A DNA stretch of 57,890 nt from a virus (taxonomy: Duplodnaviria; Caudoviricetes): the IMG/VR virus record IMGVR_UViG_3300020156_000032, positions 1 through 57,890 of that record, one strand, 5' to 3'. Both the position numbers and the translations under genes were made by a program. The notes beneath the pieces were generated by a model. The model was not told where the DNA came from, searched no databases, and saw only the letters and a program-made list of their open reading frames with translations. Position 1 is the stretch's first letter, and each line of letters starts with the position of its first letter. Shown one piece after another: positions 1 through 56,844 of the stretch.

Positions 1-131
1 GTCCAGGAGGTCATGAAAATTTTAAGAGTCTACACTCAGACTCGCCAGAGAGTCAACTCCACCCAGTCTTAGGGTTAGGTTCCCTAGGATTCCTTAATAA
101 AATCCGAAATCCCCCTTACAGGAGTCCCTGC

Positions 132-2852
132 ATGGCTCGCAAGAAGAAATCCAAGGATGATGTCAACGAGACGTCACCCCTCGATACCTCATCCCCTAAG
201 TCCACCCAATCCTCTACCCAACGCTCCGCTATGACCACCACAAAGTCTAAGAAGGCTGAGTCTACCGCGGTACTCCCTAACCGATTGCCCGTCCGCAAGG
301 CAGGTCCACCGTCTAAACCTAAGAGATCAAGCAGACCTCCAGTATTGGCGGGGACGAAGATAGCTCGTAAACCGGCCATCGCCCGGCCTCCTGTGGACCC
401 TCCTGATCCACCACCTAAGGTGCCTCCGAAGAAGAGGATTACTCTCCCCAAAGAGAGGATCGCCCCTAGCAAACACCATCGGATGTTCACACCAGAGGAG
501 CAACGAATCAAGAACAGTCAGGCGACCAACGAACGCCAGAAGGCAAAATTGAGGATCGCCCAGGACATTGCTCCCCTTCCCTTGGAGGATATTGATTGGG
601 AGCGACGCCTAGAGTGTAAGGAGTCTCTGAAGAAGTTCGCTGAGACGTACATGGCTCCAGTGTTCTACTTTGGATGGTCCAGCGATCAGCTAAAGTGCGT
701 CACTCGTGTTGAAGAGGTCATGCGGGTGGGCGGCATGTTCACTCTCGCTATGCCTCGTGGTGGTGGTAAGACAGCTATCTGTCGTGCTGGACTCCTCTGG
801 GCAACCGCCTATGGGTTTCGGAGGTTCATGTACTTCATCGGCAGCACCGACGAGAAGAGTCGTCAATCCCTGGAGTTTATCAAGACCTATTGGTGGCGTA
901 ATAAGATGCTCCAGCAGGACTTCCCCGAGGTGGGCCACGCTATCGATCGGCTAGAGAACAATTGGCACAAGGCTAGAGGTCAACTCTTCGAGGGTCTCCC
1001 AACTCACATCGTGTGGGGCTCCGGGGACCTTCGCCTCCCCTGCCTCACGCTTCCAGTGGACGTAGCCGACTGGTACGCAGAGCATGACCCTGACAGCGTC
1101 TCTCCTGTTCCGTGCATGGACTACGACCACCCCTTCTTGGATGATCGCCCGCCGGACCAGTGTGTTATCTCCCCCAAAGAAGTCAAGGGACCCCGGATAT
1201 GGGTCCCACGACAAGCAGGTATCATGGTCTCAACCAGTGGTATCGATGGGTCTATTCGTGGTGAAGCCCTGGTACATCCTGTCACCCTGGAACAACCGCG
1301 TCCTGACCTAGTGTTACTGGATGACATCCAGAAAGAGCAAAAAGCCGACAGTCCGATTCTGTGTGAGAAGCTCGCTCGTCTGGTCGATGGTGCTGTCCAA
1401 GGTCTCGCAGGTCCTGGTCGTAGCATCGCTGCTTTGATGCCTTGTACGGTCATCCGAGAAGGTGACGTTGCTGATCAATATCTCAATCCGCTCCTCAAGC
1501 CAGAATGGCAAGGTGAGCGATGTGCGATGGTGGTCACATGGCCAGCAGGGATCACTGACGTTGAGATCACCAATGACACGGAGGAAGGGAAACTCTGGAA
1601 TCAATATGCTGAACTCTATCGTCTCTCCCTCCGAGAACATCACGACATTCGACTAGCCCAGAACCTTTACCTGGCTAATCGTGAAGTGATGGATCGTGGT
1701 TTTGTCTGCTCATGGCCTGATCGCTATGACCGAGATGGTAAACTCCCAGAAGTGTCTGCTCAACAGCACGCAATGAACTTGCGTCTGAAACTGGGACCTA
1801 CCTTCTTGTCAGAGTACCAGAACAAGGGTCGTAAGCTCCAAGCCGAAGGTGAGATTACTATTACCGCGGCTCAGTTGGAGAAGAAGACTATCGCATGTAA
1901 GGAGTTCGAGGTCCCCAACGACACCCAGAAGATTGTCGCCCATATCGACGTTCAGATGGAGATCATGTTCTATACAGTCTTTGCATCGAACATGGACTTC
2001 ACGGGTATCTTTCCAACCTACGGTACTTGGCCTGACACAGGACTACGGTACTTTACCAAAGACCAGACTCGCTCTTGGTCTATGTTGACGACCGAGTTCT
2101 TCAAAGTCTACCCAGAGCATCGGAACAAAGCTATCAAGACCACCGAGGGACATATCCGTGCCCCTCTGGATGCTAAGATATACTTTGGTCTCCGACAGAC
2201 AGTCAATAAACTCAAAGGTATGACCTTTATCCGTCAGGACCAATTTAAGACACCTATGATAATCGATAAGATCACTATCGATACTCGGTGGGGTGAAACC
2301 TCTGAGGTGGTGAAACGGTTCATAAAGGAGAGTGGCGACCCCTCTCTCCTGGCCTATTATGGTCAATACATGCCACCGACTCACCGTCAGTTCGAGGAAT
2401 ACGACCTCAAGAAAGGATGGCTCTTTGAACACCAAGTCAGTCCCCATGTCCAGGAACCGAAGTGGTGTATCAAACCCAACCCCGATGGTCAGTTCTATAT
2501 GATGGCAGACGTAGATCGTCTCAAGGACTTCTTGTTTGCTCGTCTAGCCTCTCCTCTGGGAACCTCTGGTTCAATAGCTCTGTACGATGCTCCTGCCGAG
2601 AAGCATGAGCTATTCGCACACCATGTCTGCAACGCAGAGTACCCTGAGCCAGTGACCGCCAGAGGTCGGACTAAGAACAAATGGACTGTTCGAGAAGGTG
2701 TTGTCTACGACAACGACTTCTTAGACTGTGCTTGCGGTAACATGGCTTTGATGAGTACCTTCGGGGTCTCCGTCAAGACCACAGACCGTGTAATCAAACC
2801 CGTGATCCGTAAACTATCAGAGACCTATTCCAACCGCAGGAGGCAAGCATGA
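132..2852 (+). CDS. terL: Terminase large subunit, lambda gpA-like, with ~140 aa Lys/Pro-rich N-terminal extension
   Basis: Walker A AMPRGGGKT, Walker B-like LVLLDDIQ, C-terminal nuclease motifs HIDVQ and DNDFLDC; AGGAG SD at ~120; first gene of head module. Confidence 0.9.
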   Translation: MARKKKSKDDVNETSPLDTSSPKSTQSSTQRSAMTTTKSKKAESTAVLPNRLPVRKAGPPSKPKRSSRPPVLAGTKIARKPAIARPPVDPPDPPPKVPPKKRITLPKERIAPSKHHRMFTPEEQRIKNSQATNERQKAKLRIAQDIAPLPLEDIDWERRLECKESLKKFAETYMAPVFYFGWSSDQLKCVTRVEEVMRVGGMFTLAMPRGGGKTAICRAGLLWATAYGFRRFMYFIGSTDEKSRQSLEFIKTYWWRNKMLQQDFPEVGHAIDRLENNWHKARGQLFEGLPTHIVWGSGDLRLPCLTLPVDVADWYAEHDPDSVSPVPCMDYDHPFLDDRPPDQCVISPKEVKGPRIWVPRQAGIMVSTSGIDGSIRGEALVHPVTLEQPRPDLVLLDDIQKEQKADSPILCEKLARLVDGAVQGLAGPGRSIAALMPCTVIREGDVADQYLNPLLKPEWQGERCAMVVTWPAGITDVEITNDTEEGKLWNQYAELYRLSLREHHDIRLAQNLYLANREVMDRGFVCSWPDRYDRDGKLPEVSAQQHAMNLRLKLGPTFLSEYQNKGRKLQAEGEITITAAQLEKKTIACKEFEVPNDTQKIVAHIDVQMEIMFYTVFASNMDFTGIFPTYGTWPDTGLRYFTKDQTRSWSMLTTEFFKVYPEHRNKAIKTTEGHIRAPLDAKIYFGLRQTVNKLKGMTFIRQDQFKTPMIIDKITIDTRWGETSEVVKRFIKESGDPSLLAYYGQYMPPTHRQFEEYDLKKGWLFEHQVSPHVQEPKWCIKPNPDGQFYMMADVDRLKDFLFARLASPLGTSGSIALYDAPAEKHELFAHHVCNAEYPEPVTARGRTKNKWTVREGVVYDNDFLDCACGNMALMSTFGVSVKTTDRVIKPVIRKLSETYSNRRRQA

Positions 2853-3106
2853 ATGGTCGCTACAACCCAGAGACCCTCAAGGTTCAACTTGAACCCGAGA
2901 CTCCTGGTGAGCATCAATTCCTGTTCAATTTGATCCAACTCCTACAATCTGGTGGTAAGATCAGGATTAAGCCTACGGGCAAACCCTCTCTCTTGACCAC
3001 TTTCAAGGTCCGAGACATAGGTGAGGTTCGCGGGACCGCTGACTATACCTACGATGGTCCTATCTCCCCCAAAGAAATCGGAGGCCCCAATGGGACTAGG
3101 GATTGA
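2849..3106 (+). CDS. Hypothetical protein
   Basis: ATGA overlap with terL stop; AGGAGG SD upstream. Confidence 0.7.
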   Translation: MNGRYNPETLKVQLEPETPGEHQFLFNLIQLLQSGGKIRIKPTGKPSLLTTFKVRDIGEVRGTADYTYDGPISPKEIGGPNGTRD

Positions 3107-3404
3107 ATGTCCTGCTTGTGGAGGCAAGCACTCAGAAGTCCAGAAGGTAGCTCCCCGACAGATGAACTTCCAGGGGAAGCAATGGACTGTGACTAGGAGA
3201 ACCCGCATCTGTCGTCACTGTGGGTTCTCTTATTCAACCGTAGAGACTCACGAGGATGTTAAACATATCGGAGTACCAGACCGTATGTATGTCCCTGGTC
3301 CAGAAGTCTTAGCTCCTAAGAGGAAACCTCCTCTGAAGAAGGCTAAGATAGGACCAGAGGTCTTAGAACCTAAAGGTACTACTTCAGACAACCCATATCT
3401 CTGA
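3090..3404 (+). CDS. Zinc-ribbon protein (NrdR-N / Ogr-like), possible late regulator
   Basis: CPACG...RRTRICRHCGFSYSTVE; GGAGG SD at 3080-3084 supports ATG at 3090. Confidence 0.7.
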   Translation: MGLGIECPACGGKHSEVQKVAPRQMNFQGKQWTVTRRTRICRHCGFSYSTVETHEDVKHIGVPDRMYVPGPEVLAPKRKPPLKKAKIGPEVLEPKGTTSDNPYL

Positions 3405-3436
3405 TAGACCTTGAATGGCTACTGGTAACTGTGGTA

Positions 3437-6405: not shown

Positions 6406-7236
6406 ATGCTTCAGTTCTTCCTAAGTCGTCGCCTAGCATCAGGCCAGTATACTCTGACTGCGGGTCATGCAACCTTTGCCCTTTCAGGTCAAACTGCTAA
6501 CACTATTCGTAGTCGAGTCGTAACTGGTCAACAAGGTAGTTTCTCCCTTTCTGGTCAAGCTGCTAACCTTCTAAGAGGTCTATACTTAACTGCTGCTCAA
6601 GGGAGCTTTACTCTCTCTGGTCAGGATATCACCTTCGACCGTACCTATGTCTTAGCCGCGGTCTACGGTTCCTTCTCCTTGGCAGGTCAGAACGCCAACC
6701 TACTCCGAGGACTCTCCTTGGTCGGTGGTCACGGTACGTTCACCCTCTCAGGACAGTCCGTGAACCTCCTGAAAGGGTTTAGTGTGGTGGCTGCTCATGC
6801 CTCCTTCACACTAACTGATCAAGATGCTAGTTTAGAGTTCAATCGTCTCTTGGTGTCTGCTCATGGTAGCTTCACCCTGGATGGTCAAGCAGTAAACCTG
6901 CTTAAAGGTCACAGCCTTGCAGCTAGTGTGGGCTCTTTCACCTTGACTGGGCAGGACGCAATCCTCCAGTACGGTTCAGAGACTATCCTAGACGCAGACC
7001 ACGGCACGTTTACCCTCAGTGGTCAATCCGCTGACCTGACTGTAGAACGACTCCTAGTCGCGGACTATGGTTCAATAAGTCTAACCGGCCAGGACGTTCA
7101 GCTTCTCCCCCAAAGAATCCTGGTGGGGAGCCACGGCTCCTATACCCTCACTGGACAAGATGCTGATCTATTGTATTCTGCTGTAGCAACATTTAATCCA
7201 GCTTGGGCTGCTAACTCCAATAAACTCCTACTATGA
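6406..7236 (+). CDS. Repeat-containing virion protein (~21 aa repeats A-x-x-G-S/T-F-T-L-S/T-G-Q-x-A)
   Basis: About 12 imperfect tandem peptide repeats; AGGAGG SD. Confidence 0.75.
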   Translation: MLQFFLSRRLASGQYTLTAGHATFALSGQTANTIRSRVVTGQQGSFSLSGQAANLLRGLYLTAAQGSFTLSGQDITFDRTYVLAAVYGSFSLAGQNANLLRGLSLVGGHGTFTLSGQSVNLLKGFSVVAAHASFTLTDQDASLEFNRLLVSAHGSFTLDGQAVNLLKGHSLAASVGSFTLTGQDAILQYGSETILDADHGTFTLSGQSADLTVERLLVADYGSISLTGQDVQLLPQRILVGSHGSYTLTGQDADLLYSAVATFNPAWAANSNKLLL

Positions 7237-7243: not shown

Positions 7244-7750
7244 ATGGCTTTCATCAAGAACCAAGCAGTAAATGGCTTCACGTTCGTATTAGTCGGACTT
7301 GATGGAGCCGCAGTCACCACTGGAGTTGTAACTGGTTACGTCACCAAAGATGATGGTAATCAGACTCTCTTAGCGAACGCTGTCCGTCACAAGGGGAATG
7401 GACAATGGGCTGTTGATCTTGAAGCTGATGAGATGAACGCAGACCAGATAGGTCTCCTCTTCACTCATCCTGATGCGATCAACGTCAACTTCACTATTCC
7501 TACTCTCTCTAGTGAAGACACTGAACTGCTAGGTGGGAGTAGTAGCTCCTCTTCCGGTGGTGAAATTGACATCGCAGAACTTGCCTCTGCTCCACTCCGA
7601 GTTCGTACTGCGGAGGGAACTGTAGAGGAACGTAGTGTAGACGAGTTAATAAAAGCCGACAGATACCTTGCAGGACGGCAAGCTGCCGATGCTGTACCCT
7701 GGGGTATCAGAGTCGCTCGTGGTAAACCCGGCAGTTCAATCGGAGGATAA
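7244..7750 (+). CDS. Structural protein; C-terminal part resembles gpW-like head-completion proteins
   Basis: Poly-Ser linker then APLRVRTAEGTVEERSVDELIKADRYL; located upstream of portal. Confidence 0.5.
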   Translation: MAFIKNQAVNGFTFVLVGLDGAAVTTGVVTGYVTKDDGNQTLLANAVRHKGNGQWAVDLEADEMNADQIGLLFTHPDAINVNFTIPTLSSEDTELLGGSSSSSSGGEIDIAELASAPLRVRTAEGTVEERSVDELIKADRYLAGRQAADAVPWGIRVARGKPGSSIGG

Positions 7751-7996: not shown

Positions 7997-8290
7997 ATGC
8001 GAATTGGTATTGGCCTTGGAGTAACCAATAAACTCACCCCCATAGCTGTCGAGGGTGGAGGTGCTATCGTTCTATCTTTTGAACCTGGGGGGCCTACGAA
8101 TACCCTCAACTGGACTGCTTGGCCAGGTGCGATAGACTACTATTACTACAAGAATGGAGAGCTTGCTGGTAACTCAAATGGTGAGCTATCTGCGATAGTT
8201 CTAGCTCAATCAGGAAGTCAATGGTATGTCCTAGCTGTTGGAGAAGCTGGACCAATCCCTGAATCAACTTCAAACACGGTGACGTTCTAA
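7997..8290 (+). CDS. Putative head-spike fibre (Rcc01080-like N-terminus)
   Basis: N-terminal MRIGIGLG directly after spike base gene; AGGAGG SD. Confidence 0.5.
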   Translation: MRIGIGLGVTNKLTPIAVEGGGAIVLSFEPGGPTNTLNWTAWPGAIDYYYYKNGELAGNSNGELSAIVLAQSGSQWYVLAVGEAGPIPESTSNTVTF

Positions 8291-8664: not shown

Positions 8665-10349
8665 TGAAGACTCGCTCTCGTGCCCGTAAGAAACCTCTCT
8701 CAACTGAAGCCCAGCTTGAGATGCAGGCTGAAAAGCGTAGAGCTTTGAATGAGGTCTTACGCCTCCGTAACGAGGTTCGTAAGATCAAAGCTAAGTGGGA
8801 TGCTGCCCAGACAGTCACAGGAAATGAAAACCATTGGGCTCAGGCTGATAACCTTGATCCTCATGGTGCGGCCTCGCTGTCTGTTCGTCGTACCCTTCGC
8901 TCCCGTTCCCGCTATGAGATCATTGAGAACAATCCCTACCTCAAAGGGACCGTTCTCACCATAGCCAACGACTTTGTTGGTAAGGGAGGTCCTAGGCTCC
9001 AGGTCACTGATACTCGTCTATCTGCTATGCAGAAACGAGACATTGAGACCAAATGGACTACCTGGGCTCGACTCTGTATGCTTCGTCAGAAACTCTGGCG
9101 AATGCGACTAGCCAAGATCGTTGATGGTGAGTCTTTTCTTCGAGCGTACACTAATAAAAACCGGCGAAGGGAATACCCCATCACCCTGGACTTCCAAGTC
9201 CTTGAGTGTGACCGTATCTCCTCCACCGAAAGTCCTTCCCAGGATTCTCAATGGAATGAGATCGACGGTGTACGATTCGACAATTTTGAGAATCCTCTAT
9301 TCTACCATATCCTTGATTCACATCCATCGAGTGCTAACTGGTTACACTCTCGATTGGTTCCTTTCAAGGGTCAATGGTTGCCCGCCAAGTACGTTATCCA
9401 TTGGTATCGTCAAGACCGTGGTTGGCTCCGAGGAATCCCCGAAGCTGCTCCTTCTCTACCTCTATGTGCTTTACTCCGTCGCTATACCCTAGCGATTGTA
9501 CGTCATGCCGAGGTAGCCGCTGACCTCACAGCCCTCATTACCAGTGAGATGCCTCCTGGCACAACTGGTTGGACTGATGGCAACGGTAATATCATTCGTG
9601 ACAACCCATTCGATACCTTTCCGGTAGAGATGGGTATGATCATGAACCTTCCCTATGGGTATGATGTCAAACAACTCGAAGCTGTACCTCTGGGCGTACA
9701 GTACGATGAGTTCGTTGGCAGCATCCTCCGAGAAATCACTCGTCCTATCCTTACTCCCTTCCATATCGCTGCTGGTACTTCTAAAGACTCCAATATGGCG
9801 TCCGCAGTAGTCGACCAGCACATCTACAAGGGCGGTCAGGAGTTCGAGCGTTCCCACTGTGAAGAATCTGTAGTTGACCATATCCTTGACCTCTGGTGGT
9901 TCGAGGCCCTGCGTCAACCTGGCTACCTCTCCAGTAACCTCGGTCTACGAGATGCTCCACCAGAGCATGTCTGGCAATGGGACCGCGTTGGTCTGGACCA
10001 CACCGACCCATCTAAGGTCGCCCAGGCCATCCAAATCCTCCACGACAAACGACTCATCACAGATCGTGACTTCCAGGAGAAGTATATGAACCGTGACGTA
10101 GACGCTTGGCGTGAGGAGATCGAGGCTGATGATGAGTTCCGCAAGGGACTTGAAGATTCCGGTATGTCGGTTCAACCTAAGCAAGAGGAACGTCAGGCTA
10201 AGGAGGCAGAGAAACAACTCAAGGAAAAGAACAAGACCACCGAGCGTGTCTCTAAGGACCGTAATAAGACCGCCGAGAAGGTCAGTAAGAACCGAGCTAA
10301 GCAAAAGCCTGCTGCTAAGAAGCCAGTCAAGAAGGCTACTAAGAAGTAG
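8664..10349 (+). CDS. Portal protein, lambda gpB family
   Basis: LRSRSRYEIIENNPY, VDGESF, DGVRFD..P..YHI, RGIPEAAP; GGAGG SD supports ATG 8664; Lys-rich C-tail. Confidence 0.9.
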   Translation: MKTRSRARKKPLSTEAQLEMQAEKRRALNEVLRLRNEVRKIKAKWDAAQTVTGNENHWAQADNLDPHGAASLSVRRTLRSRSRYEIIENNPYLKGTVLTIANDFVGKGGPRLQVTDTRLSAMQKRDIETKWTTWARLCMLRQKLWRMRLAKIVDGESFLRAYTNKNRRREYPITLDFQVLECDRISSTESPSQDSQWNEIDGVRFDNFENPLFYHILDSHPSSANWLHSRLVPFKGQWLPAKYVIHWYRQDRGWLRGIPEAAPSLPLCALLRRYTLAIVRHAEVAADLTALITSEMPPGTTGWTDGNGNIIRDNPFDTFPVEMGMIMNLPYGYDVKQLEAVPLGVQYDEFVGSILREITRPILTPFHIAAGTSKDSNMASAVVDQHIYKGGQEFERSHCEESVVDHILDLWWFEALRQPGYLSSNLGLRDAPPEHVWQWDRVGLDHTDPSKVAQAIQILHDKRLITDRDFQEKYMNRDVDAWREEIEADDEFRKGLEDSGMSVQPKQEERQAKEAEKQLKEKNKTTERVSKDRNKTAEKVSKNRAKQKPAAKKPVKKATKK

Positions 10350-12830: not shown

Positions 12831-12858
12831 CTATCCCGCAATAAACTCCGAGGTTTTC

Positions 12859-15377: not shown

Positions 15378-15480
15378 CCCTTCCTACCTCCCGACCTCTT
15401 CAGGTCAACCTAGCTCACCCTAGGGAATGTCGGGAGGTAGTTTTTCTTTCACCAATAAACTCCTAGTACAAGGACAGCCC

Positions 15481-18642: not shown

Positions 18643-18670
18643 CCATACCCCTACCCCGCAATAAAAACCT

Positions 18671-23286: not shown

Positions 23287-24240
23287 ATGCCCGTAGTCTT
23301 AGGTATACTCGATGGTTCAGATGAAGGCAAAGACTGTCTGGAAGAGAAGAAAAAGATTTGGGTACGGAAACGTGAACATCAACGTACCTATATTGTCTTA
23401 GCAGACACAGTGAACGACACTGAAGAAGAGATCAAAGGTGCTTCTGGTGTCCCACCTCTTTTCTTTCCTCTGAATGGTTGTGTCTGTAATGATCGCACAG
23501 CAGAAGAGGTCCAGACTGTAGTTCATCCTCTCACTGGAGTGACAACAATCCTCTGGCATGTAAAATGTAACTTTACATCTGGTCTCAACGCCAGTGATCA
23601 AGATCAACCACCAGAAGCTAAACGACCCCAGGTACGTTGGGATTCTCGCACCGAAGATGAAGTCCTAGAGTTCGATGTTGGAGATGCTCGACCTATCCAA
23701 ACGGATGCTGGTGAACCTATGATCATCACAGCCCCAGGGTATATCTTCATTCTGGAGGTCACAAGATACGAAGTAGGAGCATTCGATCCCAAAGTCAAAC
23801 TTCTCTATGAGGGTTGTGCTAATTCTGCACCCTTCTATGGAGCCCCACAAGAAACTGCTGTACTGGCTAAGATTAACGCTGAAGAAGAATGGCTACCACC
23901 TCATACTGGTAGTGGTCCTGATCAACTCTATAACAAGGTGACTTACACCATCGAATTTAAGATTCGGCGTTTAGTAGTCGCTGCCTTTGGTTTGGTAACT
24001 GTCGGAGATGATCTCATACCGCTGACCCAACGGTCCCGAGTCCTGCACGCTGGATATAAGTACCGAAAGGAAGCTGGAGCCCCTTCTGAAATCTATTTAG
24101 ATAAGGCAGGGAATCCGCAGCAAGTCAACCTTGCTCTCGGTACAGGAGTCAAACTCGCAGAAGGTGCTGACCCTCAGTATAAAATGTTTCAACGACTCTA
24201 TACTAAAGACTTCAATGCCCTTTCCCTCGGCCCCTTCTAA
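23287..24240 (+). CDS. Putative distal tail / hub protein
   Basis: Directly after tape measure; AGGAGG SD supports ATG 23287. Confidence 0.6.
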   Translation: MPVVLGILDGSDEGKDCLEEKKKIWVRKREHQRTYIVLADTVNDTEEEIKGASGVPPLFFPLNGCVCNDRTAEEVQTVVHPLTGVTTILWHVKCNFTSGLNASDQDQPPEAKRPQVRWDSRTEDEVLEFDVGDARPIQTDAGEPMIITAPGYIFILEVTRYEVGAFDPKVKLLYEGCANSAPFYGAPQETAVLAKINAEEEWLPPHTGSGPDQLYNKVTYTIEFKIRRLVVAAFGLVTVGDDLIPLTQRSRVLHAGYKYRKEAGAPSEIYLDKAGNPQQVNLALGTGVKLAEGADPQYKMFQRLYTKDFNALSLGPF

Positions 24241-24260
24241 TAAACACCTGGAACCTAAAT

Positions 24261-26408: not shown

Positions 26409-28544
26409 TTACATCTCCTGTTTAGGTGTGCGAACCCAGATCAATTCCTTGATTGCCCTGGTGATCGCAACGTACTTGAGGTTCATCTCTTGGGCACGAG
26501 CCCAAGCCGACTTCGCCATTGGATGAGGCATCTTCTCTGGTCGGAGGATATATACTCGATCAGCTTCCAGTCCCTTTGCACGATGGACAGAACTCAACTT
26601 GATACCCTCGTTGGGTTCTCTACCTTCCTCGTACTCCAACTGGAACACCTTGTCGATCTTACCTCCCTTACCAACAACAGCTTCCATACTCGTAGCATCT
26701 TCAAAGAAGACACGGAGTACCGCACACTTATCTTCGAGTGCGATGAGAACATCAGGGTCAACATTCCGCCGCTTCTTCAACCGAGCCATCTCGGTCTCCT
26801 GGTACTTATCCAACCAGTTCAGAAACTCCCCAGGATCAGTAGCTTTGGAGTTCTTGATGGTCAGTTTAAGCTGCTGACCCAAATCCCTGCCTTGGATATG
26901 ACACTTCCGATTCTCTCGAATCAGACCAAAGGCCAGGGACACAATCGGAGCATTCAACCGACATAGGACCATGTCCCTATCAGTCATCTGCTCCCGAGCC
27001 TCTTCTTGACTAGCCCACTTGACTTCACCTTCCTGATTCATGTCATGGGCTTCAAACTCTGGCACAATGGCCTGAGCTTCTTCCACAATCTTCTTACCAC
27101 ACCTCCGGGTAACTGTCAGTTTCATCTCCTGCACACCGCGGTTGGATTGACCCAACCGTTTGGTCATGTTAGGGATGCTATCGACATCAGCCCCTGCAAA
27201 CCCATAGATAGCCTGGTTAGGATCACCAACCAGGACCATACGTTCGAGGAACCGAAAGATCACTTCTTGCTGACTGGCATTGAGGTCTTGAGCCTCATCC
27301 ACCAACCCCAGGTCAGCTTTCCTCCAGGGTCTCAGATCATACAGTGTGGGGAACACGATCTGATCATTGAAGTCCAGAAGGTCTGTCATCTTGAGTGACT
27401 TATCCAAAAGGATATCAGTCAGCTCCCGAATTTCTGCCTCCTGAGTACCAAGGTCCACCTGATAATGGTCTACCAAGTGTTGAAAGACCTCATCAGTGAC
27501 GAAGTACCTTCGATCATATCCTTGCTCCTCATAGGAGAACTTCAGATTGATCTTAGCGTACCCCACCAAATCCTCTACGGCATTGATCACCGTAGCCTTC
27601 TCCTTCCAGACCTCTTCAAGGTCCTTGTTCCAGTGCGTCGATAATAAACGCCTGGTTTTCCACTTGGAGGTCGAACCCCACTTCAAGCGGAAGGCTTTCC
27701 CACAGACCTTGTAGCACATCCCATGCACTGTCGAGAACTCGAACTCAACTCCAATCCTCGCCAGAGCGTCAACGAGCCATTGGTACTGAACACTGAATGC
27801 CTTCACAATGGACCTGTTGAAGGCGATGTACCGTACCACTCTAGGCTTCTCTTGAGCCACAAAGTCCCAGACCTTCTGCTGTTGTGGACTGGGCACAGGA
27901 TCAAACCCCAGGTTCTTCACAACATCCCTCCAGATGGCGTCTCGATAGGTATAGGCTACCGAGAGGACGGAGGTGAACGTCTTACCAGTCCCCGCTTTAG
28001 CATCCACGATGCCGTGCGAGGCCGAGCCTACACTTTGGGTCATCTCCCCCAAAGAAGCCTGCTTCTTAGCTAGGACCTCCGAGGGTTTCAACTTCCGAGT
28101 AGTCCCAGTTGTCGTCCCATGAACTGTCATCTGAAGTCGAGCAAGGTCTTGCTTTAGACCCTCAACCTTGCTTGCCGCTTCCGTTGTCCTCGCAGGATTC
28201 GGAGCAAACCCCGGAGGCGGGACCGAGCTTGATTGAACTCTCGGTCGCGGTGTCTGTTTGGTTGTCCGCGTTGGAACTGGAGGGCTGACCGTTCGCGGAG
28301 AATGGTCTGCATGATTCGCCGTTCTGTCTTGATCAGAGCGGTCAGTTCCCCTCGACTGAGACGTTGGTTTTGGATTCCTCCTTGGTGATTGGGGAATGGG
28401 ACTAGGAACCACTCTTGACGTTGCCTTCTTGACAGGGACACGCTTGACCTCCTTCTTGATGGGAGCCTTCTTCTTGACAGGGAGTCGTTTGACCACCACT
28501 TTGGTAGGTGGTGGAGGTACAGGCAGTTTCTTCTTCTTGGCCAT
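26409..28544 (-). CDS. UvrD/Rep-like superfamily 1 helicase with disordered basic N-terminus
   Basis: AKAGTGKT, IAFN, LVDEAQD, VGDPNQAIYGFAGA, TRRC, SVHRAKGLEA, YVAITRA. Confidence 0.92.
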   Translation of the reverse strand: MAKKKKLPVPPPPTKVVVKRLPVKKKAPIKKEVKRVPVKKATSRVVPSPIPQSPRRNPKPTSQSRGTDRSDQDRTANHADHSPRTVSPPVPTRTTKQTPRPRVQSSSVPPPGFAPNPARTTEAASKVEGLKQDLARLQMTVHGTTTGTTRKLKPSEVLAKKQASLGEMTQSVGSASHGIVDAKAGTGKTFTSVLSVAYTYRDAIWRDVVKNLGFDPVPSPQQQKVWDFVAQEKPRVVRYIAFNRSIVKAFSVQYQWLVDALARIGVEFEFSTVHGMCYKVCGKAFRLKWGSTSKWKTRRLLSTHWNKDLEEVWKEKATVINAVEDLVGYAKINLKFSYEEQGYDRRYFVTDEVFQHLVDHYQVDLGTQEAEIRELTDILLDKSLKMTDLLDFNDQIVFPTLYDLRPWRKADLGLVDEAQDLNASQQEVIFRFLERMVLVGDPNQAIYGFAGADVDSIPNMTKRLGQSNRGVQEMKLTVTRRCGKKIVEEAQAIVPEFEAHDMNQEGEVKWASQEEAREQMTDRDMVLCRLNAPIVSLAFGLIRENRKCHIQGRDLGQQLKLTIKNSKATDPGEFLNWLDKYQETEMARLKKRRNVDPDVLIALEDKCAVLRVFFEDATSMEAVVGKGGKIDKVFQLEYEEGREPNEGIKLSSVHRAKGLEADRVYILRPEKMPHPMAKSAWARAQEMNLKYVAITRAIKELIWVRTPKQEM

Positions 28545-30522: not shown

Positions 30523-30827
30523 GATACATTCTCCAAGGTAAGGTTAAGATTGCCAACCAACGAACTTGTCTGTCAACCTCTCTTTCTGAATGCAATAGTC
30601 GGCCCCGAGTCAGATCACCCTCACGGTCCCATTGGGTTAGACGCTTTATCAGGTCGTGCGTGAAGTCAAGGGAATACCGTACTTGTCTGGAATCAGTAGG
30701 CCAGAACCTAGAGCTACAAGCTCTCCATATAATCTTATTCGGGTTTCCCGTGTCTGCTGTAGCGGACTACTATCACCGTCCTATTGGATAGGTGTTGGTT
30801 ATGAAATGGGTTAATAAACTCCTAGGG

Positions 30828-34823: not shown

Positions 34824-35062
34824 CGCTAATAAACTCCTGAAAACGGGGGTTAGGTAAACTCGTCCTCACTTGTACTGCTAGGACCATCCTAGCTTATTTA
34901 GTTTGGGACCTCACTTCCAGTTGTCCTACTGCTTCTCATACAGTAGAGCAAAATGCCTCTTCTCTGCCCGAACGGTAACTAGCAAGGGTAGCTACCGTTA
35001 TTGACCTCAACATCCCTAGAACACCTGGCCATCGGTCCTAGGGACCACTAACCTTTGCGACC

Positions 35063-37232: not shown

Positions 37233-37825
37233 GCCTAACCTTATCGCCTCCGGTGAGGTCAAGCTATGCCTTGCTCCAAGATCATTGGAACAAATGCACA
37301 CGCTGTCCTCTCCATGAGTCCCGTCGTCGAGTTGTCCATGCCAGGGGAACTCTACCCTGCACGGTATTGTTTATTGGTGAGGCCCCCGGTGAATCAGAGG
37401 ATAGTCTCGGCAAGCCCTTCATCGGACCTGCCGGTAAGCTATTCGATGAGATCATTGCTGAGGTCGTCACCAACCTGGGCAAACCCTTCACCTACGCTCT
37501 AGTCAACCTCGTCGGTTGTTGGCCAAAGGTGGAGGTCGAGCTTAGTTCTGGTGAGACCCGTCAACCTACCAAGGATGAGATTCAGAAGTGCCAACCCCAC
37601 TTGATTGAACTGATCCGCTTGGCTCGACCTAAACTGATCGTCACCTTGGGAGACCTTGCCCGCAGGAACCTACCTCGTAACACCGGCATAAACAATAAAA
37701 TCCGGGAAGCGAGCCTGATCCACCCCGCCAATATCCTGCACAGAGACAACCCCTCTGCCCAGGAACTAGACTTCAAGCGTAGCGTCCTCACTCTCACCCA
37801 ACACATCCGAGCCTTGGAGTCCTAG
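37229..37825 (+). CDS. Uracil-DNA glycosylase family 4 (SPO1 polymerase N-domain-like)
   Basis: CTRCPL, FIGEAPG.SED..GKPFIGPAG, NLVGCWP, EIQKC, HPA. Confidence 0.88.
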   Translation: MSLTLSPPVRSSYALLQDHWNKCTRCPLHESRRRVVHARGTLPCTVLFIGEAPGESEDSLGKPFIGPAGKLFDEIIAEVVTNLGKPFTYALVNLVGCWPKVEVELSSGETRQPTKDEIQKCQPHLIELIRLARPKLIVTLGDLARRNLPRNTGINNKIREASLIHPANILHRDNPSAQELDFKRSVLTLTQHIRALES

Positions 37826-44678: not shown

Positions 44679-44839
44679 ACCCTCCTTGTCAACTATCAGG
44701 AACCGTCTAGTGAGGTCCATTGTACCCCTAGTTAAACCCGTAATAAAAACCTAACTTTTACCATTGGCTTTGAAATCCTTTGGGAAAAGAACATACAAGA
44801 CACCAAACCTAACTACCAACACAGACCTCGTAACAACCA

Positions 44840-46033
44840 ATGCCAATAAAAACCGAAAACCAAACCCAGGACAATCCCCAAACCATTCCCCTGGACAATC
44901 CTACTGCTCGATTCATCTACTGGATGATGGAACGACACCGTATCCATCTCAAACGCCAGGCTGGTTTACCTAAACCCTGGACCACTGACAAGGTTCTCCA
45001 GTCATACTTCTTCACCAACCCTTTCCGAGAGAACGATAAGACAACAGCGTGGTATCGAGAGAACATCCGTATCCCTTACACTACTCCACCCCACTACAAT
45101 CCCTCCCCACCCAACAAGTTTCCCTCTGCTCCCTCCCTCAGTCTGTCTCGTGTCTTGTTCGCTACTATCGCTTTCCGGTGGTTTAACTTTATACCCACCG
45201 GACAACTCCTACTAGGCCGGGCCTTGAGCAACCTGTCATCCTCCCCAAAGGACATCAAGGCTTTTGCCGCCAATCGGAATAACCTATTGTACCACTGGGA
45301 TATGATACGAGCTATCAATCGTCTCACTATCCACCAACAGTACGGTCACAAAATCTTTACAGGAGCCTATATTATCAAGTCTCCTGACCGTCGTAACATC
45401 CCTTTCACCCTAGGATACACAGACGGTCCTGTCGGTGAACAAAGACTCCACTTTCCTGATAATCGAATCGTCCCCAAACGATCATCCAAGGGGGTCTACG
45501 ATAAGATCGAAGCAATCTGTTGGGCCGTCAACAACGTATGGCTCGACTTGACCGCTCTCACCAACTGGTTCACCAACACCCAACGTAGTCTGGAGGAAGC
45601 TCATCAAAAACTCTGTTGCTACCCCTACCTGGGAGACTTCATGGCTTACGAGATTGTGAGTGACTTACGCTTCACTCCTCTCTTGGACCAGGCCCCTGAC
45701 ATCAACACTTGGGCCAATATGGGACCAGGAGCTACTCGTGGTTTACGTCGTCTCCGTGGTCTCCCTGCCGAGGGACCTCTCCCTCGCAACTACAAGGAAC
45801 TGATGCTCCAACTCTGGGACCGAGCCAAACTGGACTTCCGAGTTATGGCTGGTCCTCCTATTCCCTCTGTATCCTCCCCAAAGGAACCTAGGTCCTCTTG
45901 GATCAAGTCCGGCTTATACCCCTACCCCAATATCGAGATGCGAGAGATCGAACATTCTTTGTGCGAGTTCGATAAATACGAACGAGCCCGTCTACAGGAC
46001 GGTCAACTAAAGCGTCTATACCAAGGCACCTAA
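44840..46033 (+). CDS. aGPT-Pplase clade 1-like DNA base hypermodification protein A
   Basis: FIYWMMERH...PKPWT.D.VL..YFFTNPFRENDKTT, FRWFN, GDFMAYEIVSD, GPGA.RGL, REIEHSLCEFDKY. Confidence 0.82.
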   Translation: MPIKTENQTQDNPQTIPLDNPTARFIYWMMERHRIHLKRQAGLPKPWTTDKVLQSYFFTNPFRENDKTTAWYRENIRIPYTTPPHYNPSPPNKFPSAPSLSLSRVLFATIAFRWFNFIPTGQLLLGRALSNLSSSPKDIKAFAANRNNLLYHWDMIRAINRLTIHQQYGHKIFTGAYIIKSPDRRNIPFTLGYTDGPVGEQRLHFPDNRIVPKRSSKGVYDKIEAICWAVNNVWLDLTALTNWFTNTQRSLEEAHQKLCCYPYLGDFMAYEIVSDLRFTPLLDQAPDINTWANMGPGATRGLRRLRGLPAEGPLPRNYKELMLQLWDRAKLDFRVMAGPPIPSVSSPKEPRSSWIKSGLYPYPNIEMREIEHSLCEFDKYERARLQDGQLKRLYQGT

Positions 46034-46084: not shown

Positions 46085-47605
46085 ATGCCCCTCCAAATCA
46101 AGACAATCCGTACTGTACTGCCTGGCTCCCCTGGTTGGTATTGGTTCCGCACCTCCACCGATGCTCCTTGGAATCCCATCTTAGTGGAATACACCGATGG
46201 TAAATCCCAAGCTCACCTCGTTGGATGTTTCTACAAAGAGGTCCCTAACTCCAACAACGGAGCTTGTTTCAAGGTCACTGCTCCCATCGAGGAATTTGAG
46301 GGTGAGTGGGGAGATGAGATCACTCCCCCTAAGCAAGCCAAACCTGCCCTACAGATCACTTACGGTTCAAGCACGACCTCCGAACGAGCCCCTCGTACCC
46401 AGTACAATCCTCCTGCTAACCAGTCAATCATCCCTGCTCAGTTCGAGAAGTTCCTCTACTGGATTCAGGAGCGTCACCAAATCTATCTAAACCGAGAGGT
46501 CAACAATTCTCCGAAGCCTTGGACAAAGGACCCGATCTTGCAGAACAACTTCTTCTGCAATCCTTTCCGAGAACTCGATAAGACAACCCAGTGGTTCCGT
46601 AATAAACTCCGGCAACCATTGGCTCCGTACCGCGAGGTACTAATGGCTACGATCATCTTTCGCTGGTTCAATTACATCCCTACCGGCGAGGCTCTACTCC
46701 ATGCTTACGATAGTACAGATGCCGAGACCACTAAGGCTCGTATCAAATCCGCTGTTCGTACTCCTGCTGATCCTTTCCTGGCAGTCGTAGGTCCCCAAGT
46801 CGCAGATATGCGTAAGACTCTGAGCAAGGCTGCTAAGAAGGGTATCGCTAAGGCCGGAGCTATCGCTAAGGGTTCTTCCCCAAAGAAGTCTGCTCAACCC
46901 TCCCAAGCAGAACACCTCCCCTTGGGCCTGTTCACCAACTGGGACACAACTAAAGCGATGAGTATCCTATCGAAGCTCAAGCCTGTATTCACCTCAGCCT
47001 ATGTAGTGTCCTCCGCAGAGGGACTCTCCAAGCTGGATAGCATCGCAGGTTCTATTGGTGAGATGTGGGAAGCTCGTAACTCGATCTATGAAGCCCTCGT
47101 ATCCCACCACACCACGATGGAGAAAGCTCACCAGTTCTTAACCTCCTTCCCTGGTATCGGTAACTTCACCGCTTACGAGTTAGTATGCGATCTCCGCTTC
47201 ACCCATATCGGAGAAAAGTGGTCCGATGTCAACGCTTGGGCCAATGCAGGTCCTGGTGCAATGCGAGGTCTGAACCGTTTGTACGGTCGTCCGATCTCAT
47301 TCGCCAGAGGGACTTATGATTGGGTGTCCGAATTACAGCATGTATACTCGAAGACAACCAATGCCCTCTTGGAACATAACTTCCTCAATGCCCCTCATGG
47401 TGAGGTCCCTTACCACTCCCTCAACTGCGAGGATGCCGCTGCTGCTCCTAACCTGCTGTTCGACCTACCTTTTGAACTACGAGAGATCGAACACTCCCTC
47501 TGTGAGTTCGATAAGTATATGCGATTGTATGAGCCCGTGTCTGCTGACGAGTATCGTCCTGGCGACGTACCAAAGCAGTCTAAGCGTAAGTTCAAAGGTA
47601 CCTAA
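46085..47605 (+). CDS. aGPT-Pplase clade 1-like DNA base hypermodification protein B, extra N-terminal domain
   Basis: Same motifs as 44840 paralog (PKPWTKDPIL..NFFCNPFRELDKTT, REIEHSLCEFDKY); N-terminal PGWYW domain. Confidence 0.82.
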   Translation: MPLQIKTIRTVLPGSPGWYWFRTSTDAPWNPILVEYTDGKSQAHLVGCFYKEVPNSNNGACFKVTAPIEEFEGEWGDEITPPKQAKPALQITYGSSTTSERAPRTQYNPPANQSIIPAQFEKFLYWIQERHQIYLNREVNNSPKPWTKDPILQNNFFCNPFRELDKTTQWFRNKLRQPLAPYREVLMATIIFRWFNYIPTGEALLHAYDSTDAETTKARIKSAVRTPADPFLAVVGPQVADMRKTLSKAAKKGIAKAGAIAKGSSPKKSAQPSQAEHLPLGLFTNWDTTKAMSILSKLKPVFTSAYVVSSAEGLSKLDSIAGSIGEMWEARNSIYEALVSHHTTMEKAHQFLTSFPGIGNFTAYELVCDLRFTHIGEKWSDVNAWANAGPGAMRGLNRLYGRPISFARGTYDWVSELQHVYSKTTNALLEHNFLNAPHGEVPYHSLNCEDAAAAPNLLFDLPFELREIEHSLCEFDKYMRLYEPVSADEYRPGDVPKQSKRKFKGT

Positions 47606-48478: not shown

Positions 48479-49633
48479 ATGTATTGCTACGCTATACTGC
48501 TCCATATCAAAGACCTCGGTACTCGTTATCTGGCTAGTACCGCTACTGTCTCTTCCCTCCAGGACCTCGACTATAGTGATCGATTATCTTCTGCTAAGCT
48601 GATCGAACGTACTGACATTGCCTTCAGTTGGGCTAATGTAATCGACAAGACCCATAAGGGTCATGTCAAGGCCGAAGTCATGCCAGTGAGCATCCATGTC
48701 GGTCATCACCCTGATATGATTGGAGACGTTATGAAGTTCGCTGCGACCTTCGGTCATCCAATGTCTCAGTTCCCTCACCTCCCACCCCCTGCTACGATCT
48801 ACCTTCGTAACAATCTCAACTATGAGGAGTTCTTTGAACTCCTATTAGGTATCGTGAAGGCAATCAACGCTTATAAGCGTATGCAGACCCTCCAAGGATA
48901 CCTCCATTCTATAGAACGTGTGGGTCAGATCGAGCAACTCCCTAAAGCTGTACCCCAAGACCTCCCCAAGTCTATCCCTGATGCCTCTACACTAGCTGCC
49001 GACCTCAAAGTAGCTGAGATGGAGTACAGAGCAGCTTTGGCTGAGATCGTAGACAGTATCGGAGATCTCATCTATGTTCTCATCGGTCAGGCCCTGGCTT
49101 ATGGCCTCCCACTCATCCAGGTGTGGGATGCTATCCAGGAGGCGAATATGGCGAAGCTCTGGTCTACTGATCAAATCGCTACTCTCCCTGATGGTTGGTA
49201 TGCTGAAGTCAGTACCACCAACCCTAATAAATACCTGGTCCACAATGAGGCAGGTAAGGTCCAGAAGCCTACCACTTGGACTCCACCCAACATCATTAAG
49301 ATCATCAATACGATGATCGACACCTGCCCCTATAAAATTGGTGGTGGACCTGATTCCGTCTCCGAGGAAGCAATCGCTATTTCCCTCAAATTCAAGACAC
49401 TTAGGGAGTTTTACCAATGGCGTCTGGACTGCGGCGACACAAGCATCACAGCAGCACAGGTCTTGGAAGCAAGCGACCAACCCCTCGTCCCAGACCAACC
49501 CAACCCAAATCCCAACCCCAGTCCCAACTCAAACCTCAACCCAGCCCCAAGCCAAAGCCCCAACCAACCACAACCCCAAGACCAAGGGTACAGTCCTCAA
49601 CCCGGTCAGTACAGCAATCCTCGAAGCGGTTGA
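48479..49633 (+). CDS. MazG-like NTP pyrophosphohydrolase (putative dUTPase/dTTPase)
   Basis: EEFFEL...EIVDSIGDLIYV..G...VWDAIQEANMAK...GKVQKP. Confidence 0.8.
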   Translation: MYCYAILLHIKDLGTRYLASTATVSSLQDLDYSDRLSSAKLIERTDIAFSWANVIDKTHKGHVKAEVMPVSIHVGHHPDMIGDVMKFAATFGHPMSQFPHLPPPATIYLRNNLNYEEFFELLLGIVKAINAYKRMQTLQGYLHSIERVGQIEQLPKAVPQDLPKSIPDASTLAADLKVAEMEYRAALAEIVDSIGDLIYVLIGQALAYGLPLIQVWDAIQEANMAKLWSTDQIATLPDGWYAEVSTTNPNKYLVHNEAGKVQKPTTWTPPNIIKIINTMIDTCPYKIGGGPDSVSEEAIAISLKFKTLREFYQWRLDCGDTSITAAQVLEASDQPLVPDQPNPNPNPSPNSNLNPAPSQSPNQPQPQDQGYSPQPGQYSNPRSG

Positions 49634-49887
49634 AACTATACGTCTTGATAAGACCTCGTAAGGATGGTGAGGGTATCATTGCTAAGGTCCTCACAGCTAA
49701 GACCTCTACCATTGTACCTACCGTGGTCAAGGGATACGTTAAACCAGGGGACCCTACTAAGTGGTTCCCCGAGATCAGGGAGCTATTCCGTAATAAAATC
49801 CGGGTATCTCCTCACGACCATGTTTTGAACGTATCCATCCTTAGTTCCGAGGCTGCTATCCCACCCGACACCGTGATCGTATATTGA
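49630..49887 (+). CDS. Small hypothetical protein
   Basis: TTG start overlapping upstream stop (TTGA). Confidence 0.5.
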   Translation: MKLYVLIRPRKDGEGIIAKVLTAKTSTIVPTVVKGYVKPGDPTKWFPEIRELFRNKIRVSPHDHVLNVSILSSEAAIPPDTVIVY

Positions 49888-52712: not shown

Positions 52713-52767
52713 CCCTAATAAACTCCTAGTATCGTTACCTAGGAATACACCCTCTTTCGGATACCTT

Positions 52768-55205: not shown

Positions 55206-55211
55206 CAAGAT

Positions 55212-55352: not shown

Positions 55353-55390
55353 GTTCCGTAATAAAAACCTAAATCCTTAACTCACCATAG

Positions 55391-55871: not shown

Positions 55872-56161
55872 GTCCTACACGATAACTCTCCCTGCCAAGT
55901 CCTACACCTTTCCTGGGAGCCCCATGAGGAGTCCTGCAAGAGAATTCTACCCAGGAGTCCTGCAAGGGAGTTCTGCAAAGGAGTCCTACAGGAGAGTTCT
56001 GATAAAGACCTCATATCGCCGAGTCCTACACCGGAGTTCTGCAAGAGACCTCAACCTTACCGAGTCCTGCAAAAGCACTCGTACTGGAGTCCTGCAAGGG
56101 AGTTCTGCAATGGAGTTCTGAAAGGGTGAGTCCTGCAAGAGTTCTGCAAGAGAGTTCTGCA
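55870..56161 (+). repeat. Iteron array GAGTYCTRCA (~17 copies, local 13 bp period), putative origin
   Basis: Copies at 55870, 55897, 55929, 55942, 55955, 55968, 55981, 55994, 56021, 56034, 56062, 56087, 56100, 56113, 56128, 56139, 56152. Confidence 0.85.
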
Positions 56162-56199
56162 CGAGATGTCTATAAGGGCTCGGTTAATAGTCGCCCCGT

Positions 56200-56412
56200 A
56201 CTCTTACTAAACTCTTATTAAAGTCTTACTAAACTCTTTTTAACCTCTTAAATAACTCTTAAAATACTCTTTAAGACCTCTTAAAGACCTCCTAAATAAC
56301 TCTTTAAGACCTCTTACCGACTTCCGTACTAAGTAGTCGTAAGTTAGCCCCTAGTTAGCCCCTAGTTAGACCCTAGTTAGCCCCTAACCGTTGGCTAGTT
56401 AGCCCCTAGTTA
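56200..56412 (+). repeat. AT-rich CTCTTA(A) repeats followed by ~5 GTTAGCCCCTA repeats
   Basis: Visible tandem repeats next to the iteron array. Confidence 0.7.
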
Positions 56413-56844
56413 GCGTCTAAGTAGCCGCTAACCGCTAAGCCAAACCGCTATAACTTAGTTAGAGGTCAAACCTAAGTATTAAAGAGTTGCCCCCGCTTAG
56501 CCCCCGCCCAACCCCTGCCTAAACCCTAATAAACGCCTAGCCCAACAACGAGCTAAGCCCTCGCCCTAGCTAAGCTCCCCACGAGCTTGCCCCTGCCCCT
56601 TGAAAGCCTCCTAACCTAGCCCCTTCCCTGCGAGGGCAAAGCTCGTCCCCTACCCTTACCCTGCCCTTCCCCTGCCCTTCCCTTTGTCCTAGCCCCTGAT
56701 TAGCCCCTACCGTCACGCTTCCTAAGTGTCCAGCAAGTCCCCTAGCCCTACCCTAGCCCTACCCCTACCGTAACGTAACCCCTGCCCCTACTCTACTTTA
56801 GGTTTCGTCTTAGCCCCTACCCAAAAATATTTTAGGGGTAGGGC

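Follow-up and report, generated by a model that had tools for sequence, protein, structure and literature searches.

In the complete genome of an uncultured cos-type siphophage (IMG/VR record IMGVR_UViG_3300020156_000032, assembled as one contig of 57,890 bp; the whole stretch is called the window here, and G000 where it is compared with relatives) we identified a short polar DNA word, motif B (YAATAAANNCCK), which is a real, selected and clade-wide signal. All 20 copies are located on the + strand, and in the window and its relatives the strand of the word is always the one running 5´ to 3´ from the terminase gene through the structural genes. Its strand stays fixed whichever direction the genes take; motif B is therefore a real directional signal at the DNA level, and in all likelihood it indicates the direction of the genome as a whole, not of single genes, and is not a promoter of the local genes. 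It might serve as a programmed nick site on one strand, a reading to which we give a probability of about 0.3.

Motif B in the window

A strand-specific count of motif B in the window gave 20 copies on the + strand and none on the − strand, whereas 100 dinucleotide-preserving shuffles contained 0.21 on average and never more than 1. The count is exactly that of an earlier note made from the letters of this DNA, which had put 20 + strand copies against fewer than one expected. AATAAA, the hexamer contained in the word, is present 22 times on the + strand and five times on the − strand, and in 20 of the 22 + strand copies it is followed by NNCC; the first AATAAA is found at 96 and the last motif B ends at 56538, in agreement with the coordinates of the earlier note. 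The two remaining + strand hexamers both read AATAAACTCA and are one-letter near-misses, with CA for CC. All five − strand hexamers (5379, 25214, 31625, 37370, 37944) lack NNCC, just as had been claimed for them. The motif can be extended on both sides, since C is found at position −3 in 15 of the 20 copies and a purine follows the K in every copy.

The codon usage of the genes does not explain the number of copies, because in 300 synonymous-codon shuffles, with the non-coding DNA left untouched, about 0.9 full motifs were expected in coding DNA and 10 were seen. This is the coding shuffle that had been proposed earlier as a way to refute the signal, and it did not do so. In the same shuffles AATAAA outside the B context was, if anything, scarce in coding DNA on the + strand (2 observed, about 6 expected), and no avoidance of AATAAA was found on the − strand (5 observed, 5.6 expected).

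The earlier note had also described C/T before and G/T after the hexamer context and had placed five copies behind terminators. The flanking letters hold for the copies in the window but are private to this phage. Hairpins were found upstream of the copies at 12840 and 18660 (z −4.8 and −4.7), while those at 44742, 52717 and 55360 have no upstream hairpin. The possibility that motif B is the T-rich tail of minus-strand terminators was discarded, a suitably placed hairpin being present at only one of the 20 sites (56527).

Relatives carry the same word in their own variants

Three relatives were obtained when IMG/VR was scanned for exact copies of the core of a second word, motif A (see below), and then searched with tblastn, and an alignment of portal proteins yielded 25 loci. 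Six longer records of relatives were analysed whole, so that the seven-genome totals comprise G000, G001, G002 and G004 to G007, with the 9.3-kb fragment G003 excluded. G001 and G002 are collinear with the window at protein identities of 26–64%.

Counted as structural-gene strand/other strand, B-type words were found 20/0 times in G000, 22/1 in G001, 21/1 in G002, 11/0 in G004, 14/0 in G005, 14/0 in G006 and 7/0 in G007, which makes 109/2 in the seven genomes. The corresponding numbers for AATAAA are 22/5, 28/5, 26/9, 16/1, 16/4, 16/1 and 10/3, or 134/28 in total. With the Y and K flanks of the window, G001 and G002 score only 6/1 and 2/0, compared with 22/1 and 21/1 for the core AATAAANNCC. 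Each phage has a stereotyped 10-12-mer of its own in which AATAAA is invariant: AATAAA-M-W-CC-K-R in G000, AATAAAAACCA in both G002 and G006, AATAAACCCAAG in G005 and AATAAA-MR-CCA-N-GATTCC in G004. The copy number is nearly constant, with 20–22 copies in the three longest records. A hairpin or T-run, motif B, a Shine-Dalgarno sequence and an ATG, in this order, form the usual layout in the relatives.

Among the 25 portal loci, the core AATAAANNCC is present on the portal strand in at least four copies in six (L123, L125, L126, L127, L128, L130) and as a single copy in four (L124, L134, L138, L142). The remaining 15 are without it on that strand, though L146, one of these, has a single copy on the opposite one. 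Variant forms were found in L129 (AATAAA-A/C-GCA) and in L131 and L132 (AATAAACCCA), and loci below about 50% portal identity are without the B word. In the parts of the literature consulted on phage promoters, on strand-specific evenly spaced phage motifs and on thymidine hypermodification, the word is not described, though supplements may carry motif data.

Strand, spacing and position

The expectation of a second directional site, put forward in the earlier note, was borne out and strengthened by the clade-wide, one-strand and even distribution of motif B. It occurs about once per 2.5–3 kb, with a mean spacing of about 2.9 kb, and the coefficient of variation (CV) of the spacing is 0.40–0.65, compared with about 0.93 for random placement (p < 0.04 in six of the seven genomes, the exception being the 27-kb fragment G007 with p = 0.25). 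In the six genomes that have minus-strand gene blocks, 16 of 102 + strand sites fall into these blocks, approximately the share of DNA that the blocks occupy. No real + strand open reading frame (ORF) follows the sites in such blocks where this was checked (G000, G001 and part of G002), and no minus-strand gene has motif B on its own strand. As a negative control we used TTCCCCAA in G005, whose strand switches when the genes change direction and whose spacing is not even (CV 1.03). It had been considered as a version of motif A on the opposite strand and was rejected as a coding by-product on these two grounds.

Motif B prefers gaps between genes: 11 of 20 sites in G000 (p = 1.5e-5) and 11 of 21 in G002 (p = 8e-7) are not wholly coding, while in G001, for which crude longest-ORF calls were used, the number is 4 of 22 and not significant. 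Gaps among minus-strand genes are preferred as well, with the word pointing against those genes. Since the preference is independent of pointing at a gene, we read it as a coding constraint on an AT-rich word and not as evidence for a promoter. About one third of the sites in the window are located in the middle of genes, with no start codon for 300–1300 nucleotides.

Several positions are shared between genomes. At the g32/g33 junction the TAA of the motif is the stop codon in G000 (24238), G002 (39172) and G005 (23289), and further common positions are upstream of g27, the portal/capsid gap, the g20/g21 gap, the start and the interior of g46, the primase gene and the kinase genes. The antisense site inside g46 in G001 and G002 crosses a conserved L/M-D-F-I (codons GAT TTT ATT); G000 encodes L-E-F-L at this position and has no B site there.

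An AT-rich word with half of its copies in non-coding DNA might be thought to arise by chance or from composition, through Asn-Lys or Ile-Lys codon usage and AT-rich intergenic DNA. Both kinds of shuffle refute this, as do the strand ratio of 109 to 2 in seven diverged genomes and the fact that the strand is kept within genes on the opposite strand, unlike a true coding by-product. An artefact is next to impossible.

Motif B as a possible site of programmed nicks

The reading we favour is that motif B would be recognised by a strand-specific DNA enzyme that the phage encodes and would be the place of a programmed single-strand interruption, as in the phages T5, phiKMV and tf. What is established here is the anatomy, namely the restriction to one strand, the spacing, the conservation, the lineage-specific variants and the partly homologous positions; nicking and the identity of the enzyme are what we infer from it. 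The length of 10–12 bp and the lineage-specific variants around a constant core fit a protein recognition site that co-evolves with its reader.

According to the part of the report on phage tf consulted here, the 46 kb of this phage contain 14 copies of a 9-nucleotide consensus; all of them occupy the top strand despite convergent genes, all were demonstrated as nicks, and relatives of the phage have a one-letter variant of the consensus at similar positions (PMC3517423). As far as that part of the report goes, motif B resembles the nick sites of tf and other LUZ24-like phages, phiKMV-like phages and T5 in having a short asymmetric consensus, on one strand regardless of the genes and at a similar density, and it resembles the tf sites in that relatives have an altered consensus, partly at similar positions. 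For the tf-type sites nicks have been shown, for motif B they are proposed, and neither has a known function. The consensus AATAAANNCC is unrelated to those of the nick-site phages (TACTRTGMC, CGAC-N5-CCTACTCCGG and RGCGCRGG; same part of PMC3517423), and the phage that carries it differs from them, being a siphophage with thymidine-hypermodification genes and a second polar word.

Several points weigh against nick sites. Even spacing is not a feature of the known ones (in tf, 11 of 14 sites lie within the genome's left half, according to the same part of PMC3517423) and fits priming or protective sites better. No nickase was recognised in the scanned ORFs (about 50 ORFs of the window searched with PHROG, Pfam and NCBIfam), g60 and g46 being the only candidates. 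In addition, the second polar word and two further words private to this phage hint at a more general strand-reading process.

Alternative readings

Motif B could instead be a phage-specific promoter core, with AATAAA as a −10-like element, a start near CC-A/R and copies in minus-strand blocks that drive antisense RNA and silence early genes. Half or more of the sites are indeed found in short gaps, 0–40 nucleotides 5´ of + strand start codons, and the layout in the relatives, from hairpin or T-run to ATG, would suit a promoter. So would four real genes whose ATG lies 10–11 nucleotides past the first A of AATAAA, as in leaderless starts (Table 1; a fifth look-alike, at 31186 in G001, is a short frame only and a coincidence), and the lack of an enrichment of sigma-70-like promoters in the window (11, 9 and 11, compared with 16.2, 16.4 and 15.1 in shuffles). 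The late-promoter core suggested by the earlier note is nevertheless unsupported, because motif B keeps its strand in blocks of opposite genes, has no gene downstream there and is not used by the genes of these blocks. The gap preference that persists between minus-strand genes and the sites in the middle of genes also speak against a promoter. Either strand could carry a working promoter core, yet AATAAA on the − strand is neither enriched nor depleted. Neither an RNA polymerase nor a sigma-like gene was recognised in the scanned ORFs. The T4-type late promoter is TATAAATA, from which motif B differs in sequence. T4 late promoters and the single-orientation promoter sets of T7 share with motif B that they are short, AT-rich, present in many copies, often 5´ of genes and on one strand; motif B differs from them in its sequence and its antisense and mid-gene copies, and a gp55-like factor or RNA polymerase gene was not found. 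Altogether we regard a promoter as quite improbable. A further comparison is offered by the stoperators of mycobacteriophage L5. These repressor sites of 13 bp number about 30, are asymmetric and lie in short gaps between genes. They are like motif B in being asymmetric sites of 12–13 bp, in numbering tens, in preferring gaps and in having one orientation, but their orientation tracks transcription in each arm, whereas motif B does not flip with gene direction.

Two other readings concern the DNA itself, and both are rather unlikely. Motif B might act like Chi, being read on the 3´-ended strand by a helicase-nuclease that enters from the right (last-packaged) end or from a rolling-circle tail. 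Host RecBCD or AddAB, or the UvrD/RecB-like helicase and the PD-(D/E)XK exonuclease that the phage encodes, could be this enzyme, and recognition would switch it from degradation to recombination and thereby protect the phage DNA. With a gpA-type terminase gene at the left on the + strand, all 20 sites are in the active Chi orientation, provided that the packaging direction is as in lambda, as we assume. The indifference to gene direction and the density would also agree, and small differences around a core conserved in the relatives could track different hosts. Known Chi sites consist of 5–8 contiguous G-rich bases. In the part of the report consulted, 23 Chi sites are described for the cos phage LLS, whose terminase genes are at the left, and 20 of these sites occupy the top strand. 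For phage MD8 the counts on the two strands are 32 and 0, and the density is one per 1.86 kb, with 0.85 sites expected per genome (PMC12315714). Motif B is like these words in its tens of copies (20–32 per genome of about 45 kb there), in lying on the terminase strand and in being far above chance. The words of LLS and MD8 are a G-rich host octamer, whereas motif B is A-rich, stereotyped over 10–12 positions and has phage-specific flanks; according to the same part of PMC12315714, the sites of Chi-rich phages are clustered at the right end and a recombination module is lacking, whereas motif B is evenly spread, with 6 of 20 sites in the rightmost 22%, and its phage encodes a Sak4-like annealing protein and an exonuclease. 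A Chi-like role has against it, too, that no prophage relative was found in 185,579 species genomes. Alternatively, motif B could be a preferred priming or helicase-loading site, used by the primase-helicase g71 on the lagging-strand template during one-directional (rolling-circle) replication. Spacing at the scale of Okazaki fragments, a strict one-strand rule, which one-directional replication predicts, and the near-constant copy number are in line with this reading, and so are the zinc ribbon, Toprim, helicase and winged-helix architecture of g71 and its place beside a probable iteron origin. The GC skew of the + strand is negative over the whole genome (1–57890), strongest at 26–36 kb, which is the minus-strand block, and at 44–52 kb; it is thus independent of the coding strand, a hint that replication is one-directional or that some other bias affects the strand as a whole. 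Zinc-ribbon/Toprim primases such as T7 gp4 (5´-GTC-3´) and DnaG are known to read 3–5 bases, typically trinucleotides, at sites that share the one strand and the Okazaki-scale intervals of motif B but are not visibly over-represented, whereas motif B is a 10-12-mer. Priming does not predict the strong gap preference either, though this could be a coding constraint, and no obvious likeness was seen between motif B and the iteron clusters of each genome. In a wider sense, motif B, common to the whole sub-clade, and motif A, which is lineage-specific and fast-evolving, might be two independent signposts that label the DNA as the phage's own and show its direction to machines moving along one strand, a tentative proposal. 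Possible forms are phage-specific Chi-like self-marks, by which the UvrD/RecB-like helicase and PD-(D/E)XK nuclease of the phage would spare its DNA while degrading that of the host, or programmed starts for Okazaki fragments or helicase loading.

Candidate reader proteins

Three proteins are candidate readers of motif B, g60, g46 and g71 with its winged helix, though no result ties any of them to the word. The TnsA/Hjc-type PD-(D/E)XK nuclease g60 could, from its sequence, be a junction resolvase or a site-specific nuclease; E21, P55-D56 and E73-x-K75 are invariant in 11 homologs, and the protein has a basic tail. The large orphan g46 is conserved in the clade and contains an invariant D...Q-H-R block. 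Residues 95–196 show a weak likeness to the ParB/Srx fold (KorB: Z 4.8, 77 residues aligned, root-mean-square deviation (rmsd) 3.7), and further weak matches of the centre of the protein are a serine kinase (Z 4.0), SspE (3.9), PadC (3.6) and sulfiredoxin (3.6). For the model of the whole protein the matches were confined to a Tudor/KOW-like barrel at the C-terminus (best Z 8.8, rmsd 2.0, 55 residues aligned). Pfam returned no match for five g46 orthologs, and a profile search of the PDB nothing useful. g71 consists of a zinc ribbon, a Toprim primase, a P-loop helicase and a C-terminal MarR-like winged helix. CxxC...CxxC, E171-G...D175-G and D237-N-D239 are invariant in six g71 orthologs, and there is a weak match to the CHC2 zinc finger. 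The reader search also included g70, for which it gave no placement.

Significance of a one-strand word

To our knowledge, one-strand DNA words of phages have only two proven forms, the nick sites of T5, phiKMV and tf and Chi sites borrowed from the host, and the function of the nick sites has been unexplained for about 60 years. The clade described here adds a case with cleaner statistics (109 and 2 sites in seven genomes), although these genomes have no more than a quarter to two-thirds of their protein sequence in common. Compared with both precedents, the even spacing, the near-constant copy number in the three longest genomes, the constant AT-rich core with phage-specific flanks and the second, unrelated polar word alongside are new. 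If the sites are nicked, their even spacing offers a handle on the purpose of such nicks, for instance as swivels or replication starts. Should they be self-marks or serve in priming, the mechanism would be one so far undescribed in phages. For practical use, the B word gives the strand and orientation of metagenome fragments from this group of thymidine-hypermodifying phages.

A second polar word, motif A

Motif A (TATCTCCCCCAAAGAA, core CCCAAAGA) has 26 copies on the + strand of the window and none on the − strand. It occupies all reading frames and both gene orientations and is very evenly spaced (CV 0.40; none of 5000 simulations was equally even), and it has no gap preference (12 of 69). 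The counts are 30/1 in G001 and 13/4 in G002, a variant in G007 (ATCCCCCAGA) scores 12/0, and other relatives have variants as well; no recognisable version was found in G005, though motif B is present there. A-family and B-family words are the only ones that are polar in all three full genomes.

The earlier note had thought of motif B as a possible partner signal to motif A. The two words do share strand and even spacing, but a coupling was observed in G001 only: a B site within 60 nucleotides of an A site was found for 6 of 22 sites there (P = 0.0024), for 1 of 21 in G002 and for none of 20 in the window, where the suggested comparison of A-B distances thus revealed no coupling. In the G001 pairs, motif A is located 36–42 nucleotides after motif B or 23–47 nucleotides before it, and in G005 motif B does without a recognisable A. 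A hairpin around motif A was considered and dropped, with a mean folding energy of −12.1 kcal/mol compared with −11.6 for random segments and no covarying stem between G000 and G001. In five copies of motif A the purine-rich 3´ end lies 10–13 nucleotides ahead of a start codon and may double as a ribosome-binding site.

Two more exact 8-mers are found only on the + strand of the window, CAATCCTC (13/0; 207, 6959, 11740 ... 57297) and GATCATTG (9/0; 4266 ... 48239), both of them also within the minus-strand block. Both belong to this phage alone, the counts being 5/2 and 0/3 in G001 and 1/1 and 1/0 in G002, respectively.

Genome and gene content

The coordinates of the sites and of the genes named here are given in Table 1. 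The + strand replication module encodes, in addition to the proteins listed there, a PD-(D/E)XK exonuclease, a Sak4-like protein and a family-A DNA polymerase. The two paralogous 5-hydroxymethyldeoxyuridine (5-hmdU) DNA kinases match PF18723 with E values of 1e-38 and 1e-45. Judged from this set of genes, the siphophage very probably hypermodifies thymidine; an aGPT-Pplase-like gene was not recognised among the hypermodification genes of the window. Most of the scanned ORFs are orphans, and most small ORFs belong to no family in PHROG, Pfam or NCBIfam. HNH or GIY-YIG proteins were not recognised in the scanned ORFs, nor was a repressor or integrase in the window.

The phage has no close kin among named phages: megablast against them gave no match for the window, the polymerase reaches at most 34% identity, the terminase has two weak partial matches and the primase none. 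An IMG/VR search with the polymerase protein alone found no relatives. The single sequencing run that matches the window is labelled soil metagenome, and one of its contigs, 31.7 kb in length, spans 36000–55999.

Table 1. Positions of motif B, motif A and genes (window coordinates unless another genome or locus is named)
Feature	Position	Strand	Context
Motif B, TAATAAAATCCG	95..106	+	non-coding, 25 nt 5´ of terminase ATG (132)
Motif B, CAATAAACTCCT	7218..7229	+	final codons of ORF 6406-7236; ATG 7244 is 14 nt on
Motif B, TAATAAAAGCCG	7647..7658	+	within ORF 7244-7750
Motif B, TAATAAAAACCG	9152..9163	+	middle of portal gene
Motif B, CAATAAACTCCG	12839..12850	+	gap past protease-capsid gene, after hairpin and T-run; ATG 12859 is 8 nt on
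Motif B, CAATAAACTCCT	15453..15464	+	g20/g21 junction; site also at the G002 junction
Motif B, CAATAAAAACCT	18659..18670	+	gap after strong hairpin; ATG 18671 adjoins; G002 site at equivalent junction
Motif B, TAATAAACACCT	24238..24249	+	TAA is stop of ORF 23155-24240; ATG 24261 is 11 nt on
Motif B, TAATAAACGCCT	27642..27653	+	antisense in minus-strand UvrD-like helicase gene
Motif B, TAATAAACTCCT	30812..30823	+	gap among minus-strand genes; no + ORF downstream
Motif B, TAATAAACTCCT	34827..34838	+	about 4 nt past start codon of minus-strand g46, directed away; site at g46 start in G001 too
Motif B, CAATAAAATCCG	37693..37704	+	within UDG-superfamily gene
Motif B, TAATAAAAACCT	44741..44752	+	gap past DNA polymerase gene
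Motif B, CAATAAAAACCG	44844..44855	+	beginning of first 5-hmdU DNA kinase gene
Motif B, TAATAAACTCCG	46600..46611	+	within second 5-hmdU DNA kinase gene; kinase genes of G001 and G002 hold sites too
Motif B, TAATAAATACCT	49225..49236	+	within MazG-like gene
Motif B, TAATAAAATCCG	49791..49802	+	short doubtful ORF or gap 5´ of thymidylate-synthase-like gene
Motif B, TAATAAACTCCT	52716..52727	+	gap, 40 nt 5´ of primase-helicase ATG
Motif B, TAATAAAAACCT	55359..55370	+	gap, 33 nt 5´ of ORF 55404-55871
Motif B, TAATAAACGCCT	56527..56538	+	non-coding repeat region by right end
Near-miss, AATAAACTCA	2205..2214	+	within terminase gene
Near-miss, AATAAACTCA	8027..8036	+	
Motif A sites	447, 1173, 3068, 7109, 10452, 13063, 15941, 18498, 20540, 23264, 25922, 28048, 30160, 32541, 34228, 36354, 37874, 41885, 44091, 46879, 48160, 50287, 51361, 52605, 53679, 54610	+	span 447-54617
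Paired B/A sites, G001 (L117-L119)	8542/8578, 14737/14760, 21593/21619, 38903/38945, 45275/45312		
Leaderless-like ATG gene, G000	18660		
Leaderless-like ATG gene, G002	4940		
Leaderless-like ATG gene, L128	11575		
Leaderless-like ATG gene, L130	3216		
Large terminase, lambda gpA type	132-2852	+	family scans
Portal gene	8631-10349	+	family scans
Protease-capsid fusion	10470-12773		family scans
Tape measure gene	20561-23143		family scans
Minus-strand gene block	~26.0-36.0 kb	−	includes UvrD/RecB-like helicase
UvrD-like helicase gene	26409-28544	−	
g46	33351-34823	−	
UDG-superfamily gene	37229-37825	+	replication module
g60, TnsA/Hjc-type PD-(D/E)XK nuclease	41904-42491	+	immediately 5´ of polymerase gene
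First 5-hmdU DNA kinase gene	44840-46033	+	PF18723
Second 5-hmdU DNA kinase gene	46085-47605	+	PF18723
MazG-like pyrophosphohydrolase gene	48422-49633	+	
Thymidylate-synthase-like enzyme gene	50140-51468	+	
Primase-helicase g71	ATG at 52768	+	

Repeats and other features of the right end

Immediately 3´ of the primase-helicase gene, at 55900–56200, about 14 direct repeats of (G)AGTYCTGCAA were found, which probably form a replication origin with iterons; the alpha protein of phage P4 represents a comparable arrangement of an iteron origin. Dispersed + strand copies of the iteron are located in the tail-gene region (16493, 23222, 24039, 24395). A small + strand protein, encoded at 55404–55871, has a weak CsrA-like segment (PF02599, E 5.6e-5, under the curated cut-off). 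A second repeat cluster at 56300–56900 consists of TAGCCCCT and related words, with eight copies in 600 nucleotides, and is followed by two identical perfect hairpin terminators (57564–57590 and 57816–57842), each with a 10-bp stem and a T-run, 252 nucleotides apart. This region of repeats and terminators may be the cos or terminase-binding region, and G002 has an analogue in a cluster of CCCAGCCC between its primase and terminase genes.

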